This document shows positions 2,551-17,080 of a stretch of DNA of 17,080 bases, one piece after another. The notes beneath the pieces were generated by a model. It ran no database searches and was not told the origin of the DNA. It worked only from the letters and a program-made list of their open reading frames with translations. Location of the stretch: the IMG/VR virus record IMGVR_UViG_3300006201_000132. One strand, given 5' to 3'. Origin of the DNA: a virus. Position numbers and translations under genes: made by a program. How positions within the stretch are numbered: position 1 is the stretch's first letter; every line of letters starts with the position of its first letter.

Positions 2551-3612
2551 TTAAACCAAGTTGAGATAACGCATGACATTATCCCATGTCGCCTTAACTT
2601 GCGGCGTGTCAAATCGAACTTGCCCCGTCATGTACATTCGTTTCATGCCCTTGAGCAATCCGCTTGACCGCTCCACCATGAGCATATCGGGCGTTTGATC
2701 GGCCCTGGTCAGCACGTAAGGCTTCGCATCGCTCGGGGTCTTCTGCGTCACGTACCACAAATTACGCTTGAAGTCGCGCCACATCCCGAGGGTAACCCCG
2801 TCGAACACCACCGAGAACTGATACCGTGCTTCGGCACTCTTGGCCTCCATGAAGGGCGATTCGTCCAAGGTAAACCGATTGCCCACCGCGTAATCGTAGT
2901 ACTCGGTTTCGGCAATCATAGACCCGAAACGAGTAGCCGTGACCCGCTCGGCGTAGGCAGTTGATTCGATCATCTCGCAGCAATGAAAGCCCTTCATTGC
3001 CGAACAGAACCGTTGCCCGATGCGCGGCGTGATTCGGAAGTACACGAAATAGGGGTTGACAATCGAAATGGCGTTGGCAAGAAACATAACCCGCACCCGA
3101 TCAGTGAAGCGGTCAACGGTGTTGTAGAACTCCAGGAAAATACGCACCTCGTTAGGTATGTAGTGAATGAACCCACGATCAATGATGAACTCATCGAACA
3201 CGATCAGATGAACGTTCGGATAAGGCACCGACTTCTTGCCTACCGTTGTAGAGAGAGCCACCAAATAGCAGAAGGTGCGCCAGGGGTGCGGGTTCTTCTC
3301 GGGGTTGCCCTGCTCGTCCACCTCGTCATAGGCGGGGCGCACCTGCGCCCTCATCCCGTGAACCCTGATTTCAAAGTCGGGGAACACGTCCGCTATATCA
3401 TCGAACAACTGTTCGCGGTCGGCGAACTCTGTTTCATAGCGGCGCATATAAATGAACTGCTGCCCCTTCGTCAGAAACCGCCGAAGCCCGCTCACCTTCA
3501 TTTCATATGTCTTCCCCACACCGCGCCCGCCAATGGCGTACATCCACATGGCATTCCTGGTCATGAGGTCGTGACACGACCAATGGATGCCGTCGTTAGC
3601 CAGCGTCGCCAT
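2551..3612 (-). CDS. DNA encapsidation (packaging) ATPase, phi29 gp16-like
   Basis: Walker A is GGRGVGKT and Walker B is HLIVFDEF. Long stretches match phi29 gp16 as I remember it: GxRGxGKxYxMK, QFIYxRRY, YIPNEV, NAxSxVNPYF. The start was moved to the second ATG (3612) because GGAGG lies 8 nt upstream and it forms a TAATG overlap with the preceding stop. The track start at 3636 has no RBS. Confidence 0.93.
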   Translation of the reverse strand: MATLANDGIHWSCHDLMTRNAMWMYAIGGRGVGKTYEMKVSGLRRFLTKGQQFIYMRRYETEFADREQLFDDIADVFPDFEIRVHGMRAQVRPAYDEVDEQGNPEKNPHPWRTFCYLVALSTTVGKKSVPYPNVHLIVFDEFIIDRGFIHYIPNEVRIFLEFYNTVDRFTDRVRVMFLANAISIVNPYFVYFRITPRIGQRFCSAMKGFHCCEMIESTAYAERVTATRFGSMIAETEYYDYAVGNRFTLDESPFMEAKSAEARYQFSVVFDGVTLGMWRDFKRNLWYVTQKTPSDAKPYVLTRADQTPDMLMVERSSGLLKGMKRMYMTGQVRFDTPQVKATWDNVMRYLNLV

Positions 3613-4880
3613 TAGAGATACCTCCGTAGTTGCCATTCGCGCTGTGTCTTGCAGTACTCGGTGGCACTGAGTTTGTTCCAGTGCGGCCCGGGGGCTGAAC
3701 CGTGCCCCATCAGCTTATCGCCGCCCATGTACATTTCGACGTGCTGGACTCCGTTGGTATGCGTTACCTGCAAAAGGTCGGCGGGCTGGGCCTTGTCCAC
3801 GGGAAAGGCAGTACCAGGCCCGCCGCTGGCAATCAACTTACCCTTACCGCGCTGAGCACCCGTGTAGGTGCCGATGTTCTTGCCCGTGACGAGCTGGTAG
3901 GCCCTCCACACTGTGGAAGAGCAGTCCCCATAGCCCGACTTGTCGGGGTGGAGCCTGTCCCCAGATTGGGAGTATTTAAATTTGTTTTCCCACGACTTGA
4001 ATAGCTCCACAATCCTGTTTTGCGCCTCGGTGCCCGTCGAAGACCCCGAGTCGGTATAGTCGTTCACCTGCGTTGTCCATCCGGGATTGCGGGCAGGAAT
4101 CCACCGCTGCGCACCAGCAGCATAGAACAGTACCCCATCGGCGTAGGGCGAACCGTCGGCCCCGTAGAGCACGAGGGTATCGCCCGTTTGGATGATATAG
4201 CGGAAATTCGCCGCCTCACTCGAAATGGTCTCCGAATCGCCGCCCGTGGTCACGTCCCCCACCTGGCCGTAATCGGGCGGTGCTGACGTGCCGTCCCACT
4301 TGTCCAGCAGCCGCTTCACTTCGTTGTACCGATTTCGGTACTTTGACAATACACGGTCGTTTAGGGCCGTGGTATGACAGGTGTTGAGGGTGGCCGTGCC
4401 CGCCGCCATGGAGCGGCAGACACGGCCGCAGGCGGCGGGGGTCTGGTGGTAGATGTTCAGCAGGTATACCAGCACTTTAGGGTTGTCCAGGCTCGCCCCG
4501 TACTGGCGTATGATGTAGTCAATTTGCTTGTCCTGCTGCTCATTGATCTGGGCTTCCTGCAAAGCGTGGTTGGCCGAAGAGGTCTTCGCCACGGCCTTCC
4601 AACTATTGCCCTCCACCTGTGTCCAATGGTAACCCTCCCACCATGACGAGTTGGCGGCGTGGGCCTCCACGTTCGCGCGGAGGCTCGCCGCTAACTTGGC
4701 GTAATCGTCGGGGGTCTCGTCCTTCATGCGGTGCAGGTGGTCGCCCGCCTCAGGCCCCCAGTACTGCCACATGCCCAAGGTGATAGCGTCTACCCAGTAA
4801 ACGCTGTTCCAGGTAAAGTCGGACTCCACCGCAGCAATGCAGTATTTGGAGTATTCGCGAACTTGGGATTTCGTGGCCAT
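3612..4880 (-). CDS. Tail-associated peptidoglycan hydrolase (phi29 gp13 position) with C-terminal NlpC/P60-like cysteine peptidase domain
   Basis: The C-terminus has YGDCSSTVWRAY (Cys nucleophile context), then HVEMYMG and GHG, which is an NlpC/P60- or CHAP-like arrangement. The N-terminal Trp-rich domain (ITLGMWQYWGPEAG...) may be lysozyme-like, but I did not recognise it confidently. The start was moved to ATG 4880 (RBS TAGGAGC). The track start at 4958 would overlap the fibre gene by 65 nt and lacks an RBS. Confidence 0.72.
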   Translation of the reverse strand: MATKSQVREYSKYCIAAVESDFTWNSVYWVDAITLGMWQYWGPEAGDHLHRMKDETPDDYAKLAASLRANVEAHAANSSWWEGYHWTQVEGNSWKAVAKTSSANHALQEAQINEQQDKQIDYIIRQYGASLDNPKVLVYLLNIYHQTPAACGRVCRSMAAGTATLNTCHTTALNDRVLSKYRNRYNEVKRLLDKWDGTSAPPDYGQVGDVTTGGDSETISSEAANFRYIIQTGDTLVLYGADGSPYADGVLFYAAGAQRWIPARNPGWTTQVNDYTDSGSSTGTEAQNRIVELFKSWENKFKYSQSGDRLHPDKSGYGDCSSTVWRAYQLVTGKNIGTYTGAQRGKGKLIASGGPGTAFPVDKAQPADLLQVTHTNGVQHVEMYMGGDKLMGHGSAPGPHWNKLSATEYCKTQREWQLRRYL

Positions 4881-7401: not shown

Positions 7402-8182
7402 AGTAATAACCTCTCATTCCGAAACTACCGATCTCAGGTTTCCACAAACCCATAAAGCACACGTCCAATTCCGCGATGACCATCATATCAATGTTCAGCA
7501 GAGCCGAACGCAGACGCTGCACCGCCTCGGCGGCAGTGAGGCCCGTCAATCCCGCCACGTGCTCGGCGTACTTCGCCGTATCCGTGGCGTTCATCTTCGC
7601 TAACTCGTCAATGTCGGTGGAGTTGTCGGCGCTCGTCGTGGACGTTGCGCGGGTATCGCCCGTGGCGTTGCTCCTCGAATCAGCATCCACAAGAGATGAT
7701 GCGTAGTCCTCGCGCCCCGAAAGCTGCATTTGCGGGGTGGAGCTGTTCACCGTGCGGGCAGTGCTCGTCGTGTCCGAGGTCGTGGCCGTGTCGGCCTGCT
7801 CGGTGCGGCTCTCCCGGTACGAGTCCGTGCGGTCGGTGGTGCGCTCCTCTCCGTGGGCCGTGTTCCGCCAGCCGTCCGTTTGTATTTCATGGTTGGCGAA
7901 AGGGCTCTTATCCTTCAAGGCAAGGTCGGATTTGTACACCTCATTGTAGAGCGGCATAATCTCGTTCATTTTGCGGTTGATGAACATTTTGAACAGTTGC
8001 GGCGTTTCCGCCCCGATCTCCCGAAACCAGAAGTGTTCCACGATCTTGCGGTTAAGCTGCTCGCGGTAGGTCTCATCGAAGATCGGGTAGTGCTGCAAAC
8101 CGATGTCGAAGCCGTTTTCGATGAGGCACCCGAGTTCTACGGTGTAGGCCGCGCCGACATGGTAGTTAAGAAAGCCCGTCAT
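7394..8182 (-). CDS. Lower collar protein (phi29 gp11-like)
   Basis: It lies directly after the portal. The N-terminal half (YPIFDETYREQLNRKIVEHFWFREIGAETPQLFKMFINRKMNEIMPLYNEVY) matches the conserved REIG-x-ET ... IMP-x-YN pattern I associate with gp11-family lower collars. The central region is S/T/D-rich. GGAGGTGA lies upstream. Confidence 0.75.
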   Translation of the reverse strand: MTGFLNYHVGAAYTVELGCLIENGFDIGLQHYPIFDETYREQLNRKIVEHFWFREIGAETPQLFKMFINRKMNEIMPLYNEVYKSDLALKDKSPFANHEIQTDGWRNTAHGEERTTDRTDSYRESRTEQADTATTSDTTSTARTVNSSTPQMQLSGREDYASSLVDADSRSNATGDTRATSTTSADNSTDIDELAKMNATDTAKYAEHVAGLTGLTAAEAVQRLRSALLNIDMMVIAELDVCFMGLWKPEIGSFGMRGYYYE

Positions 8183-9104
8183 TATCGCTCACCTCCAATG
8201 CGGGATAATCCCCGTCCTCGGTGCCGCCCGCCGTGTTGACGATTTCCCACATCTCACTGGAAAAATCCCGGTTGAAGTCCACCCACATATCCAGCCCCCA
8301 GCGGCGGTTAATCTCCTTACACCCCTCGCGCAGACAATCCAGGGAAATAAGGCGCATGGTGGACAGCTCGACGTTGTTGGACTCAACTTCGGCGGTCTGC
8401 ACGCGCTCGGGCTTGTCAACGGGCGAGTTATCCACGCCCCAGCGGGTAAGGTAGTCGCGCCAAAGGTTGTTTTGAGCGTCTTGCAGCTTGTCATAGACAA
8501 AGGGCGCATCTGCGGCAAGGTACTTTGTCTCCACGCCGTCCATGAGCGCGTCAACGCCGATCACCACAGGTTCCCCGCCTTGCCATTGGCTCACGAGGTT
8601 GTTGATGGTCACGCGTTTTTCCTCGGGGCAGGTGATGATAACGGGGGTCATCTGCTGCGACAAGTTGCAGTCCATCGCACGGTCTAGGTACGCGAGTCGT
8701 GCAGCGAACCGCTGGAAGGTCGGGCGCATATTGTTACGGCGGTAGTTGAGCCACAGCGGTACGCACTCTTCGGCCTTGAGCAGTCGCCGGAAAGAGCCGT
8801 TCGCGCCGTAGGCGTTGAACGCGATGGGATTGTTGTACATATTGTAGGCACCGCCGGGCGTTGCCATGAGGGACAGAAACTTGTCGGTGGTCTCGTCGCG
8901 GAAGAACACCGACAAGCCCCGTTCCAAAAGCGTCAGGGTCAGAAAGCGGCGGTCGATCTCAACGGGTACGTTTTCCCATTTCAGTGTTGCACACGCTACC
9001 TGCTGGCACAGATCGAGCCAATAGTCGTAGTAAGCATCATTGGCGTTTGCTGTCTGATTCGGATTGTCGCGCGTCGTGATCTTGTTTTTTCGCTTGCGGG
9101 ACAT
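8166..9104 (-). CDS. Portal / head-tail connector (upper collar), phi29 gp10-like
   Basis: At 312 aa it is close to the 309 aa of gp10. The basic N-terminus is MSRKRKNK (gp10 begins MARKRSN). Further matches are WENVP (gp10 WENLP), MTPVI, and KYLAADAPFVYDKLQDAQNNLW (gp10 [20 protein letters not shown], from memory). TAATG couples it to the upstream gene. Confidence 0.9.
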   Translation of the reverse strand: MSRKRKNKITTRDNPNQTANANDAYYDYWLDLCQQVACATLKWENVPVEIDRRFLTLTLLERGLSVFFRDETTDKFLSLMATPGGAYNMYNNPIAFNAYGANGSFRRLLKAEECVPLWLNYRRNNMRPTFQRFAARLAYLDRAMDCNLSQQMTPVIITCPEEKRVTINNLVSQWQGGEPVVIGVDALMDGVETKYLAADAPFVYDKLQDAQNNLWRDYLTRWGVDNSPVDKPERVQTAEVESNNVELSTMRLISLDCLREGCKEINRRWGLDMWVDFNRDFSSEMWEIVNTAGGTEDGDYPALEVSDNDGLS

Positions 9105-12767: not shown

Positions 12768-13115
12768 TTAATCCTCCTTACCGTCAGCGTCAACGTCGCT
12801 GAACAGATTGTCGATGTGAATAACTTCGCCCTCGTCGGTAACGTTCTCCTCCACGATGCCGTCACCGTCGTTCTCGGTGTCGCCTGCGGGAATCTGCATC
12901 AGCAGGTCGTAGTTTCGCGCCTTGAGGTCTTGCACACTCGCAGAAAGCGAGTCGTTACCTTCGGCGAGTTCCGCGATTTTCGCGTCGCGAACGCTCAGAT
13001 CATCGTCGTAGGCGCTGCCCTTGTCGTAGAGGTTGCGGAGCCATTGCGTAGTGCTCTCGTGGTCTCCCTCCTCGACACCTGCGAGCACCAGGGCCAAAAG
13101 CTGCTCGAAGTCCAT
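12768..13115 (-). CDS. Scaffolding protein candidate (115 aa, very acidic, coiled-coil)
   Basis: It lies immediately upstream of the capsid gene, as phi29 gp7 does. It is rich in D/E, has a heptad-like central segment, and is small. No sequence family was recognised, so the call rests on position and composition. Confidence 0.6.
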   Translation of the reverse strand: MDFEQLLALVLAGVEEGDHESTTQWLRNLYDKGSAYDDDLSVRDAKIAELAEGNDSLSASVQDLKARNYDLLMQIPAGDTENDGDGIVEENVTDEGEVIHIDNLFSDVDADGKED

Positions 13116-13129
13116 ATTTCCGTCCTTTC

Positions 13130-13166
13130 AAAAACGAAAAGCCCCGATGACGCAAGCCATCGGGGC
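13130..13166 (-). terminator. Strong intrinsic terminator at the early/late junction
   Basis: On the minus strand the stem is GCCCCGAUG/CAUCGGGGC. It extends to about 11 bp around a UUGC tetraloop and is followed by UUUUCGUUUUU (13140-13130). The U-tract ends 2 nt before the AAAGGA RBS of the scaffold gene. On the + strand no T-run follows the stem. Confidence 0.8.
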
Positions 13167-13292
13167 AATGGTTAATGGTGGCGAGCGCCCTCGGCGGCGG
13201 CTCTGGTCGCGTCCAGTCACAAACGGGGCGGTTTGACCCGTGCGAATCCCCGTACTGTTCTACACACCTGACCGAAAGCAGCCACCATCGGG
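13130..13292 (-). ncRNA. Candidate structured non-coding RNA (pRNA-like or regulatory leader), about 160 nt, 5' end undefined
   Basis: The 177-bp gap has no ORF. Complementarities seen by eye are: GAUGGUGGC (13289-13281) with GCCACCAUU (13182-13174); GCUUUCGG (13279-13272) with CCGAGGGC (13194-13187); and CAGUACGGGG (13256-13247) with CCCCGU..ACUG (13227-13222 and 13216-13213). The segment ends in the terminator hairpin. The position is syntenic with the phi29 pRNA gene. Confidence 0.35.
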
Positions 13293-13514
13293 CTAATGGT
13301 AGCTGTTTTCAAAGTTTTCCGCAATACCTTCAAACTCGTAGGCCATTTCTCGGCGGCTCGCGATATCGTTCTTCTCCATAACATCGGTAAACTCCCACAG
13401 GTTCATAACGGCGAGGCGCACCACCTCGCCACGAGACCAGTTCATTTTCATTGCCAACGTGTCCACATAGTCGGCTTGCTGGTCGGTAAGCGTGAAGCTG
13501 CGTTCAATGCTCAT
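13293..13514 (-). CDS. Ribbon-helix-helix (CopG/Arc-like) DNA-binding protein candidate, 73 aa
   Basis: The sequence from MSIERSFTLTDQQADYVDTLAMKMNWSRGEVVRLAVMNL fits the strand-helix-helix pattern of RHH regulators. ATG 13514 has TAAGGAGA 7 nt upstream. The longer track start at 13547 has no RBS. Confidence 0.5.
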   Translation of the reverse strand: MSIERSFTLTDQQADYVDTLAMKMNWSRGEVVRLAVMNLWEFTDVMEKNDIASRREMAYEFEGIAENFENSYH

Positions 13515-13557
13515 AATGTTTCTCCTTACTTGTCTAAATACATTCATGGTGGCTCAC

Positions 13558-15276
13558 TTACTTAATCGAAAAAGTTGTGGGCGTAAGCACGATGCCGCCC
13601 TTTACATGGTTTGGTCTCAGCTTACCCCAGAGTTCCAGGCCTTGACGGAAGTTGCCGAAATTGATTTGACTTCGCAAATTCTTCGGGCACCCGCAGGCTT
13701 TAACGTCTATATAGGGGGTCACTGGCACCATAGTATATACATCATCCACCATCTTGCCAACGTGGGTGACCCGTTCGGCGTAGGTCTTCGAGCGAACATA
13801 GCGGGCCAGGTCAAAATCGGATTCATGCTTCCAGGCCCCTAACTTGGTAGGGTGGACAAAATCGAGGTTGAGGGGTTCTTGCCCCAGGCAATGGATTGAA
13901 TCGGTATCTGCATACAGAAAACGGGAGTAGATGCGCTGGCAGTTGGTGATGATGTCGCGCCGCGCGTAAGCCGTGATGAACGCACCCATGGGGGTGTATA
14001 CAGGGGCGCGGGTCTCCTCCTCACCGAGGCGGTAACCTGTTTGACCCCCTTCCTTGAGGTAAGGCACCTTACCCGTAACGTCGGGGTTGGTCGCGAACTT
14101 GCCGTAAAGTGAGTTTAGCATCAGTTTAGCTCGCAACCGCTCGCCGCCCTCGGTGGTCTCCTTAATACGCATCCAATGGTCTATATACTCGCAGAACATA
14201 CCGCGCATTGCCTGGAATTTATAACCACCGTTCCACGAGACCACGACAACGTCATAGTGTTCACTCAACAAATCTAAGTCAACATTTGTCAAGGCTAAAT
14301 CCACCATGCCGTCTGAATCAATGACGTACTCGTGTTCGCTGAAATAGGGGTTGCCCTTGATTTGCACTGTGGGCAGATGATCGGGCTTGAGCTTAAGCGA
14401 GCAGGTTAGAAACTGAATGTAAAGCGGATATAGAGGGTCTTTGGTGTACCGCCCCGTGAAGTACGTGGGCAGGCCCACGGGCAGGGCATCGCTGTACATG
14501 ACGGAAGGGTACATACTGTTCTTATCGTAGACGCTGCCCATCCATATATTACGCCGTGGTTTGTCCTCGGAACAGGTGAAACGAGGATTGGCATACGTCC
14601 AACCGCCTTTGTAGGCTCGGCGTATCTCGGTATCCATTGCCACGGGAATTTCCGGGAAGAGTCTACGCCAGAGTTTTTTGCCCAACCCGTCCTGATACCA
14701 GGCGAGCGCATCGGCTCCCGTGGTCAGGCGCGTTAATCCTCGTTCGAAGTCCTGGCGTAGCGCCATGGACATAATGAGCACGTCGTTTTTCAGGTATTGC
14801 TTTTCCTCGTCGGTGAGGTGATGGCCGACAGGGCGCGGTGCGTCATAGTCAATTGAGAGCTTGGAAACGGGAAGCTTGAAGGCTCGGGCCACTTCCTCAA
14901 CACTCATGGTTAACTTCTTTAGGGAGTCCTTGAAGGTGACCACATTAAGCTGGCGCTTAGTGCGCTTGAAACAGACCTGAACTTGATAGTACTTCCCCAT
15001 GTTGGAAATGAGGGTGGAGAACTGGCGGGTGCCCGGTTTTTCCTTGACCCACTCCCATCCGTTGTTCAAAAGGTAGTTGACGATGAACTCGCCGTCAAAA
15101 GCGAGATTGTGGAACCACATATCGCAGTTTTCCACGTCCTCGCAGAAGGCCAGGAACGTTTCCATGTTCGTTCCCATCGTAACCGTTGCTTCTCCGCTGA
15201 TCTCGCAAGCTGCCCACGCCCAAACCCTGCAATCTTCCTCCTCCGTGGTGGTCTCGAAGTCAGCGGTGTAATCCAA
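13558..15276 (-). CDS. Protein-primed family B DNA polymerase (phi29 gp2-like), 572 aa
   Basis: The motifs present are: Exo I DFETTT; Exo II FHNLAFDGEFIVNYL; Exo III YLKNDVLIM; motif A YDKNSMYPSVMY; motif B KLMLNSLYGKFATNP; motif C LYADTDSIHC; and KxY RSKTYAE. It uses a TTG start at 15276-15274, with AAGGAGGTG 5 nt upstream overlapping the TP stop. Confidence 0.97.
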   Translation of the reverse strand: MDYTADFETTTEEEDCRVWAWAACEISGEATVTMGTNMETFLAFCEDVENCDMWFHNLAFDGEFIVNYLLNNGWEWVKEKPGTRQFSTLISNMGKYYQVQVCFKRTKRQLNVVTFKDSLKKLTMSVEEVARAFKLPVSKLSIDYDAPRPVGHHLTDEEKQYLKNDVLIMSMALRQDFERGLTRLTTGADALAWYQDGLGKKLWRRLFPEIPVAMDTEIRRAYKGGWTYANPRFTCSEDKPRRNIWMGSVYDKNSMYPSVMYSDALPVGLPTYFTGRYTKDPLYPLYIQFLTCSLKLKPDHLPTVQIKGNPYFSEHEYVIDSDGMVDLALTNVDLDLLSEHYDVVVVSWNGGYKFQAMRGMFCEYIDHWMRIKETTEGGERLRAKLMLNSLYGKFATNPDVTGKVPYLKEGGQTGYRLGEEETRAPVYTPMGAFITAYARRDIITNCQRIYSRFLYADTDSIHCLGQEPLNLDFVHPTKLGAWKHESDFDLARYVRSKTYAERVTHVGKMVDDVYTMVPVTPYIDVKACGCPKNLRSQINFGNFRQGLELWGKLRPNHVKGGIVLTPTTFSIK

Positions 15277-16576: not shown

Positions 16577-16814
16577 CGTTGTGCTCGATGGTTTCCAGTT
16601 CCGCGTGCTCCATGAACTCGCTATCAGGCATGGAGTATACTAGCGTAACCGGGGTAGCCGTGTCCAGCATGAAATTGGGGTGTTCCTTGCGGACTCTCGA
16701 CAGAAGGTGGCGGGTGCTGGTGTAGTGGCCCGCCACCTGGTAGCTTACGGGCGTTACCTCGCCGTCGATGAGGTCATAGCCGTGAGCCACCGTGGCTTTC
16801 CTTCTCAGTTGCAT
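16569..16814 (-). CDS. Hypothetical early protein (81 aa), first gene of the right-hand operon
   Basis: ATG 16814 has AAGGAGGTG upstream. No family was recognised. It occupies the position of phi29 gene 6 (dsDNA-binding protein), but that analogy is purely positional. Confidence 0.6.
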   Translation of the reverse strand: MQLRRKATVAHGYDLIDGEVTPVSYQVAGHYTSTRHLLSRVRKEHPNFMLDTATPVTLVYSMPDSEFMEHAELETIEHNAE

Positions 16815-16867: not shown

Positions 16868-17080
16868 TTCTTCCTGACGTCACATAGTATACACCACCAC
16901 GCCCACTGCGGAAGTGGGAGGCCGTGGGTTCATAAAGTCTACACAATGTTGTGAGGCGGTGAATTATAGTGCAATGGTGAGTAAAGTTAGTTGCAGTTTA
17001 GGGCGGCACGTTGGGTGTGCGGTACGGTGCAGAGTTGCACTTTGGGGGAAAGCGAGTCAGTGGGAGGTACAGTTATATAT
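16868..17080. repeat. Right inverted terminal repeat (ITR-R), 213 bp
   Basis: Exact reverse complement of 1-213. It ends the window with ...ATATAT, which reads 5'-ATATATA on the minus strand. Confidence 0.97.
16875..16891 (-). promoter_or_regulatory. Mirror copy of the ITR promoter/operator candidate, facing the right-hand early operon
   Basis: Same sequence as 190-206, because it lies inside the ITR. TATACT on the minus strand is at 16891-16886 and TGACGTCA at 16882-16875. The first gene downstream on the minus strand starts at 16814. Confidence 0.3.

Follow-up and report, generated by a model that had tools for sequence, protein, structure and literature searches.

A structured RNA gene downstream of the polymerase

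The window considered here is the whole 17,080-bp stretch of IMG/VR virus record IMGVR_UViG_3300006201_000132, a complete phi29-like phage genome with 54% G+C. In its main minus-strand array, the genes for a protein-primed DNA polymerase and an 84-aa open reading frame (ORF) are followed by a gap and then by the scaffold-like and major capsid genes. An earlier note on this DNA had proposed that the gap encodes an analogue of the prohead/packaging RNA (pRNA) of phi29-type motors, the only known RNA essential to a viral DNA-packaging motor. Our analysis indicates that the gap almost certainly holds a conserved, structured, stand-alone RNA gene, whose product is probably the pRNA of this phage. 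The segment is non-coding, as the note had it, and is bounded by the stop codon of the 84-aa ORF and the start codon of the scaffold-like gene (Table 1); its further description as the only sizeable ORF-free stretch is roughly right, in that this is the largest intergenic gap within the main minus-strand array.

Folding of 13116-13300, as the note had suggested, gave -87.7 kcal/mol for the minus strand (z = -5.0), a stability reached by 0 of 200 dinucleotide shuffles, and z = -1.0 for the plus strand. The gene would make a small non-coding RNA of about 158 nt, comprising a 116-nt core and a terminator hairpin. The base of the core is formed by helix A, the closing helix of the note, which appears in the minimum-energy fold, is conserved and covaries. 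Helix B is stacked on it, and together they form an ends-paired, covariation-supported helix of 19 bp that includes the 3-nt bulge CUC. This second helix had also been drawn in the note (as GCUUUCGG/CCGAGGGC); it is missing from the minimum-energy fold of the window itself, and what speaks for it is its presence in that of L018, a 95%-identical relative, together with changes on both sides in 8 of its 10 pairs.

The central arm consists of helix C, which can be extended by ACAG/UUGU beyond a 1-nt U bulge, then a bulge on the 5' side and helix E, so that what had been read as a single 19-nt loop is actually made up of a bulge (7 nt), a stem (3 bp) and a loop (6 nt). The CAGU/ACUG extension that the note had given to this hairpin competes with hairpin D, a conserved element that it had missed. 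Enforcing the helices listed in Table 1 gave -53.0 kcal/mol, as against -54.6 kcal/mol for the unconstrained optimum (a penalty of 1.6 kcal/mol), and in the enforced fold the junction strands pair further, leading to a three-way junction in the window RNA. The window's minimum-energy structure has a three-way junction of its own, with a hairpin CGCC-GCCGAG-GGCG whose loop may pair with the bulge at UUCG; we dropped it because the relatives favour helix B and hairpin D. The terminal hairpin of the note was recovered by a terminator scan together with its U tract; it stands where pRNA has its domain II and likely determines where the RNA ends.

Table 1. Features of the RNA gene, its surroundings in the window and RNAs abutting gp16 in distant relatives
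Feature	Position	Strand	Remarks
Core structured RNA, 116 nt	13174-13289	minus	putative counterpart of pRNA domain I; matched by models R1 and R2
Helix A, 5' strand GAUGGUGGC	13281-13289	minus	family motif A[U/C]GGUG; pairs with 13182-13174
Helix A, 3' strand GCCACCAUU	13174-13182	minus	in minimum-energy fold; covariation
Helix B, 5' strand UGCUUUCGGU	13271-13280	minus	pairs with 13195-13186; covariation; in L018 fold
Helix B, 3' strand GCCGAGGGCG	13186-13195	minus	in L018 minimum-energy fold; covariation
3-nt bulge CUC, 3' strand, between helices B and A	13183-13185	minus	3-nt bulge likewise in L019, L103, L001, L022 and the L024 group
Helix C, 5' strand ACGGGG	13248-13253	minus	pairs with 13228-13223; 6/6 pairs changed on both sides
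Helix C, 3' strand CCCCGU	13223-13228	minus	
7-nt 5' bulge AUUCGCA	13241-13247	minus	putative counterpart of pRNA CE (right-hand) loop
Helix E CGG/CCG with 6-nt loop GUCAAA (13237-13232)	13229-13240	minus	3/3 pairs compensatory, 100% paired
Hairpin D CUGG-ACGCGA-CCAG	13203-13216	minus	loop 13212-13207, putative counterpart of pRNA D (left-hand) loop
Intrinsic terminator	13131-13166	minus	11-bp hairpin 13166-13141 and UUUUCGUUUU 13140-13131; found by terminator scan
Candidate sigma-70-type promoter	13296-13324	minus	-35 TTGCGG 13324-13319, 17-nt spacer, -10 TACCAT 13301-13296
84-aa ORF	13293-13547	minus	between polymerase and gap; stop codon 13295-13293
Protein-primed DNA polymerase	13558-15276	minus	
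Scaffold-like gene	12768-13115	minus	start codon at 13115; major capsid gene next
SSB-like gene and candidate terminal-protein gene			first in main minus-strand order
Tail knob, gp10 connector (8166-9104), lower collar		minus	after capsid gene; then tail genes
gp16 packaging ATPase (2551-3636), holin, GH25 lysin		minus	last in array order
RNA abutting gp16, L096	5202-5306		
RNA abutting gp16, L072	5280-5383		
RNA abutting gp16, L071	5231-5344		
RNA abutting gp16, L098	5240-5354		
RNA abutting gp16, L101	5184-5292		
RNA abutting gp16, L064	5007-5110		

Conservation of the RNA among phi29-like relatives

Relatives were collected by way of their polymerases from IMG/VR, metagenomes, genome bins and Logan/ENA assemblies, which yielded 192 loci for comparison; homologues of the polymerase number roughly 7,900. 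Every relative with a polymerase identity of at least 54% has a gap of 140-230 nt in the same place, and the element within it measures 107-126 nt from its paired 5' end to its paired 3' end in 17 distinct sequences. Homologous RNAs of 104-126 nt were found in 36 of 193 related sources, the core length staying within this range down to 44% polymerase identity. Relative to L018, whose polymerase is 95% identical, the RNA carries three substitutions, all of which keep pairing, next to an ORF that has diverged by about 25%. In L018 (3446-3706) the stop codon of that ORF has changed from TAG to TAT, so that the reading frame continues for 12 codons, into the 5' strands of both helix A and helix B.

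A covariance model built from helices A, B, C and E of eight RNAs of another clade, with the window left out (R1), matched the window once, with the element covered full-length, at 13175-13288 on the minus strand (28.7 bits, expect value E = 0.0011 in 722 kb). R1 also matched L030, L187, L188-192, L019 and L111, all of them outside its seed. With a second-round model (R2) the window element scored 73 bits and 36 of the 193 sources had a match at E <= 0.05, with no off-target matches; up to E = 1, all R2 matches lay just downstream of the polymerase and on the same strand, except that of L111. A pattern search recognized the C/E arm in 21 loci and the covariance model did so in 36 sources, and hairpin D is found in all curated members. 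A nhmmer profile of the first 13 RNAs detected nothing outside its seed, and a plain MAFFT alignment of 12 gaps misaligned the 3' halves and was unusable for structure.

The members share an architecture. The ends of helix A read A[U/C]GGUG at the 5' side and CAC[C/U][A/G]U at the 3' side, and helix B is stacked on it across a 3-nt bulge; the C/E arm that follows has an outer stem C, a 5' bulge of 5-8 nt, a 3-4-bp stem E and a 6-nt loop, and precedes hairpin D. Very little variation is seen in the loop of this arm, which is GUGAAA in most members, GUCAAA in the window and GUAAAA or GUGAUA in a few, while the surrounding helices change freely.

The family comes from human and animal gut metagenomes and has one cultured member, Hungatella phage CH17P1. 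Host assignment by way of metagenome bins gave inconsistent results, from Prevotella to Bacilli, and was not used. In L188 (3609-4109), as in L190-L192, public gene calls place a 166-aa ORF over the RNA; the gene called in this region of L189 is scaffold-like, has 109 aa and starts past the RNA. The 166-aa call is probably a misannotation, and recognition of the RNA would correct it in the contigs concerned.

Compensatory changes in the helices

The note had suggested looking for compensatory changes in relatives, and helices A, B, C and E do covary. In the alignment produced by the search with R1 (A6), 92.1% of cells were paired, as against 69.7% in shuffles and 34-52% when the partners were slid, with changes on both sides in 21 of 25 pairs and a covariation score that was reached by 0 of 500 shuffles. 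A curated alignment of 17 sequences that includes hairpin D was 94.4% paired, compared with 62%, with double changes in 32 of 42 pairs and again 0 of 500 shuffles reaching its score. The segments of this second alignment were curated by hand because automatic choice of the longest terminal helix and the most stable hairpin had often taken strands of the terminator or of helix B rather than helix A and hairpin D. Its gaps were replaced by N, which left it unchanged but for one column, and it was used for pair counting only; since N columns would distort a model, none was built from it. The bias of curation by hand is offset by the covariance-model alignment and by the region-based permutation tests described below. 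In L111, helix A reads GGGGA/UCCCC in place of GGUGA/UCACC, a compensatory change.

These results bear on a further alternative, namely that the gap holds no functional RNA but a GC-rich spacer and a terminator, folding stably by virtue of base composition. GC-rich sequence does fold stably, and the gap of the related L001, taken alone, has a z of only -1.6. The window's z of -5, however, was obtained against shuffles that preserve dinucleotides, the core keeps its length across relatives, and both the detection of the element by models, including one made from other clades, and the compensatory changes of A6 contradict a mere spacer, which we regard as extremely improbable.

Complementarity between the bulge and the D loop

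The ring of phi29 pRNA is closed by pairing between neighbouring molecules, the C/E-arm bulge of one with the D loop of the next, and the two loops covary among phages (PMC5066667; PMC12670572). In the window RNA, UCGC of the bulge (13245-13242) is complementary to GCGA of the D loop (13210-13207), and all lineages of the family show such a match between bulge and D loop, with differing sequences: UGCUA/UAGCA in L024, CGCUA/UAGCG in L106, GGGGA/UCCCC in L188, CGUUA/UAACG in L111, UGCC/GGCA in L002, UGCCA/UGGUA in L029, CAGC/GCUG in L187 and GUCA/UGAC in L101. RNAs found later with R2 offer 3-5 bp in the same place (AGCAA/UUGCU in L052, UGUAA/UUACA in L064 and GCUA/UAGC in L072). In CH17P1 the bulge reads ACGCUA and the D loop AUAGCA.

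Among 19 non-redundant RNAs, cognate bulges and loops could form a mean of 3.7 Watson-Crick bp, compared with 2.3 for non-cognate combinations, a difference reached by 0 of 50,000 permutations and persisting when the 16 GC-rich RNAs were taken alone. When the whole C3-to-B3 region was used, so that no hairpin had to be chosen, the observed value was reached by 1-55 of 50,000 permutations, and with all 24 RNAs this region-based measure was reached by one in 50,000. As read from sequence, covarying complementarity of this kind is the signature that pRNA self-assembly into a ring would leave. The note had pointed to a different pairing, CAAAC with GUUUG. These two are indeed complementary in the window; the loops of relatives (GUGAAA, GUAAAA, GUGAUA) lack a matching partner, and as an intermolecular pair it was rejected because it has no counterpart there, the covarying pair being UCGC/GCGA.

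Promoters, terminators and neighbouring genes

The candidate promoter of the window ends 7 nt ahead of the A in AUGGUG and sits within the 3' end of the 84-aa ORF. Relatives have strong promoters in the same position, for example TTGTGA-17-TATAAT in L019, TTGACT-17-TATAAT in L001 and TTGACA-17-TATATT in L024, which end 4-7 nt ahead of the paired 5' end. In the loci examined, the RNA has a terminator or a U tract on its 3' side; in low-GC relatives the U run comes directly after helix A, so that the RNA would terminate itself.

The genes around the RNA vary. It precedes the scaffold gene in the window's clade, and lies directly upstream of gp16 in L096, L072, L071, L098, L101, L052 and CH17P1, and directly downstream of gp16 in L064. 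In CH17P1 (OP172758.1 13681-13798; L193 5774-5891) the RNA occupies an unannotated 235-nt gap (R2 E = 6.5e-4) flanked by genes annotated as 'DNA polymerase' and 'DNA packaging protein'. The RNA of L111 (311-429, minus strand) runs divergently to the early operon and has TGgTAAAAT, a promoter of the extended -10 type; 3' of it come first a hairpin with a U run and next a holin-like ORF of 80 aa. Such variation in neighbours argues against a leader for one particular gene, and the repeated adjacency to gp16 fits a role in packaging.

The main rival reading is a cis-acting leader or attenuator, riboswitch-like or an antitermination element of the put type, instead of a motor component acting in trans. 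It would control read-through from the early to the downstream genes, and its bulge and loop would form an intramolecular pseudoknot. In the window's clade, the window included, the element stands directly ahead of scaffold and capsid genes, which would suit such a leader, and in the distant relatives examined a gene starts about 20-30 nt past the 3' end of the RNA. Late transcripts must read through the terminator, because the ribosome-binding site of the scaffold gene lies directly 3' of it, and pairing within one molecule is compatible with the sequence. Phage antitermination and attenuator RNAs such as HK022 put work in cis, each on a single operon, and are not known to have an ends-paired, self-contained architecture; like the window RNA, they are structured RNAs between a promoter and late genes, beside a terminator. 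Nor are covarying self-complementary loops known from put-type RNAs. Whereas those serve one operon, the gene downstream of the present RNA may be scaffold, gp16 or a holin-like ORF (the last in L064 and L111), and in L111 the RNA has its own promoter and points away from the operon. Furthermore, the strong promoters that relatives have just ahead of the paired 5' end indicate a discrete, ends-paired RNA rather than a leader continuous with an mRNA, and an invariant loop combined with a freely covarying bulge and loop is the pattern of a pRNA, not of a ligand pocket. A leader function by itself is thus unlikely, and a motor RNA that also carries a leaky terminator would be compatible with a packaging role.

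Relation to the canonical pRNAs

Bacillus phages with a pRNA include phi29, PZA, M2/Nf, B103, SF5, GA1 and DLc1, among others. Reviews describe the molecule as occurring in phi29 and its Bacillus-phage relatives only (PMC11476376; PMC5066667), and a search published in 2025 added only more pRNAs of Bacillus phages (PMC12670572). The known pRNAs share 12% sequence conservation and keep their structure, a combination also seen in the present family, and phi29-type gp16 ATPases require pRNA in the only systems studied (PMC5066667). Complementarity between bulge and D loop is also the criterion by which Jin, Bohmer and Guo (2025) accepted new pRNAs (PMC12670572).

With the phi29 dimensions taken from the consensus structure of Rfam family RF00044 (Phage_pRNA), the two RNAs agree in their order of arms, which is helix A, a C/E arm with a 1-nt bulge and a 5' bulge loop, and hairpin D. 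Both have a 3-nt bulge in the end-paired helix, on the 3' strand in the window's clade and on the 5' strand (CCA) in phi29. Helix C is built as 4 + 1 + 6 in the window and as 5 + 1 + 4 in phi29 pRNA, the 5' bulge has 7 nt (5-8 nt in the family) compared with 9 nt, stem E has 3 and 4 bp, respectively, and loop E has 6 nt in both. This loop is GUGAAA-like and almost invariant in the family, whereas phi29 has UUGAGU; only the UGA core is common to the two. Hairpin D has a 4-bp stem and a 6-nt loop in the window, a 6-bp stem and a 5-nt loop in phi29 pRNA. In both RNAs the bulge loop and the D loop could pair over 3-5 bp and they covary, and the core, of 116 nt in the window and 117-120 nt in phi29 pRNA, is followed by a 3' hairpin domain that is dispensable in pRNA. 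There are also differences: the family has more junction nucleotides than the 3-nt junction of the phi29 consensus, and the window RNA is GC-rich (64%), unlike phi29 pRNA. The gene of the family is found in mid-genome, either where the early genes give way to the late ones or next to gp16, while the pRNA gene of phi29 is at the end of the genome. The sources of the family (gut, Hungatella) are not Bacillus, whose phages carry the canonical pRNAs. On the other hand, the position downstream of the polymerase on the same strand is shared with the pRNA of the Bacillus phage L039 (about 690 nt downstream), and the window genome, like that of phi29, encodes a gp16 ATPase and a gp10 connector that carries RKR near its N-terminus.

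Several observations weigh against the identification as pRNA. RF00044, whose scan the note had proposed, gave no match at E <= 10 in the window or in L024, L060, L091, L098, L101 and L188; with a gathering threshold of 100 bits, the same search did find the L039 pRNA, at 48 bits. Nor did Rfam recognize any other known family in the gap. Conversely, R2 detects neither the phi29 nor the L039 pRNA. Hairpin D is missing from the unconstrained minimum-energy fold of the window, and some relatives (the L024 clade) have an extra small hairpin that makes the junction four-way rather than three-way. The curated alignment counts for less, having been fitted to the structure by hand. Taken alone, the five RNAs that came to light once the hypothesis stood gave p ~0.07 (n = 5), which is not significant in a test that is underpowered. 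The pairing of bulge and loop, as judged from the sequences, would fit an intramolecular pseudoknot as well as an intermolecular ring, and in three relatives the partner itself is ambiguous: in L001 (4286-4401), L022 (3989-4108) and L103 (3840-3955), the bulge [A/G][C/U]GGCA is complementary to the D loop, but matches better (5-6 bp) a single-stranded stretch 5' of helix B (UGCCGU, UGCCG and UGUCGC, respectively). Finally, the candidate promoter of the window agrees with the consensus at only 7 of 12 positions and was not listed by the promoter scan. Since no model crosses between the two families, we claim a common architecture and a probable common function, homology not being demonstrated; and since the Rfam model misses the element, it would be a new variant of pRNA rather than a recognizable member of RF00044.

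The same lack of covariance-model similarity in either direction, along with a stand-alone gene that has a promoter and a terminator, would also be expected of a conserved trans-acting small RNA with another function, such as regulation of host or phage genes or service as a decoy for a host factor, which would have come to resemble pRNA by convergence. No conserved single-stranded seed that would suit antisense pairing is evident, and the sole covarying long-range complementarity is internal to the RNA. Chance would have to account for the match to pRNA domain I, for the occurrence only with gp10 and gp16 and for the frequency with which gp16 adjoins the RNA, and an Rfam scan of the window offers no other candidate for a pRNA. 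We therefore consider convergence of this kind quite unlikely.

Proposed role in DNA packaging

By analogy with phi29, then, and from its anatomy, its covarying self-complementary loops and its context, the RNA is probably the pRNA of this phage. The central proposal of the earlier note is thus supported by the size of the RNA, the order of its helices, the covariation of bulge and loop, and the presence of gp10 and gp16 genes. We can present a rough proposal for how it would work. Copies of the RNA would pair bulge to loop between molecules, forming a ring at the connector end of the prohead, where the basic N-terminus of the connector (RKR) would contact it. The GUGAAA-type loop, which hardly varies, would make contact with the prohead, and the long A/B helix with its 3-nt bulge would project outward, docking the gp16 ATPase ring; the RNA would leave once packaging is done. 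In addition, the RNA gene probably doubles as a leaky transcription stop at the boundary between early and late genes, because the terminator follows the RNA and the ribosome-binding site of the scaffold gene comes directly after it. Such a dual role is likely in any case, since late transcripts must pass the terminator.

The conservation of a structured RNA across the family suggests that pRNA is widespread in gut phi29-like phages. We lean, with somewhat less confidence than for the window itself, towards the broader view that pRNA is not specific to Bacillus phages but an ancient and widespread part of phi29-type motors in phages of gut Firmicutes. The present RNAs would then be a second family, unrecognizable by sequence, with a near-invariant GUGAAA loop for prohead contact, freely evolving ring loops and a gene that marks the boundary between early and late genes.

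If this is true, RNA-dependent packaging would be general in the phi29-like lineage, including uncultured gut phages and the cultured Hungatella phage, which would bear on whether pRNA is ancestral. The family would also provide dozens of natural variants for dissecting the role of the RNA (with the invariant loop, the placing of the long-helix bulge and the rules of loop-loop pairing as lines of study) and new self-assembling, GC-rich scaffolds for RNA nanotechnology. The cultured CH17P1 makes a packaging function directly testable.

Genome setting and other observations

The polymerase of the window is 45.6% identical to that of phi29, and nothing among GenBank phages is close to the window at the DNA level. 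The gp10-like and gp16-like genes that the note had named are borne out by matches of window proteins to the connector family PF05352 and to PF05894 (gp16). The window connector aligns with phi29 gp10 end to end, and its basic N-terminus, MSRKRKNK, corresponds to MARKRSNT in phi29, with the RKR kept; in phi29 this is the segment of the connector that binds pRNA. The 84-aa ORF ahead of the RNA resembles ribbon-helix-helix proteins, by way of a weak PF01402 match of its homologue in L106.

The genome ends in perfect inverted terminal repeats of 213 bp (1-213 and 16868-17080), while the annotated repeat of phi29 is far shorter, at 6 bp. Near the right end, 16701-16764 on the minus strand gave a weak Rfam match to the Xanthomonadaceae small RNA Xoo2 (21.8 bits, gathering threshold 45, E = 2), which is at chance level and looks like a GC-rich hairpin. 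At the left end, small plus-strand ORFs (135-1146) converge on the main minus-strand array, and a 19-bp hairpin at 1191-1232 lies between the two.

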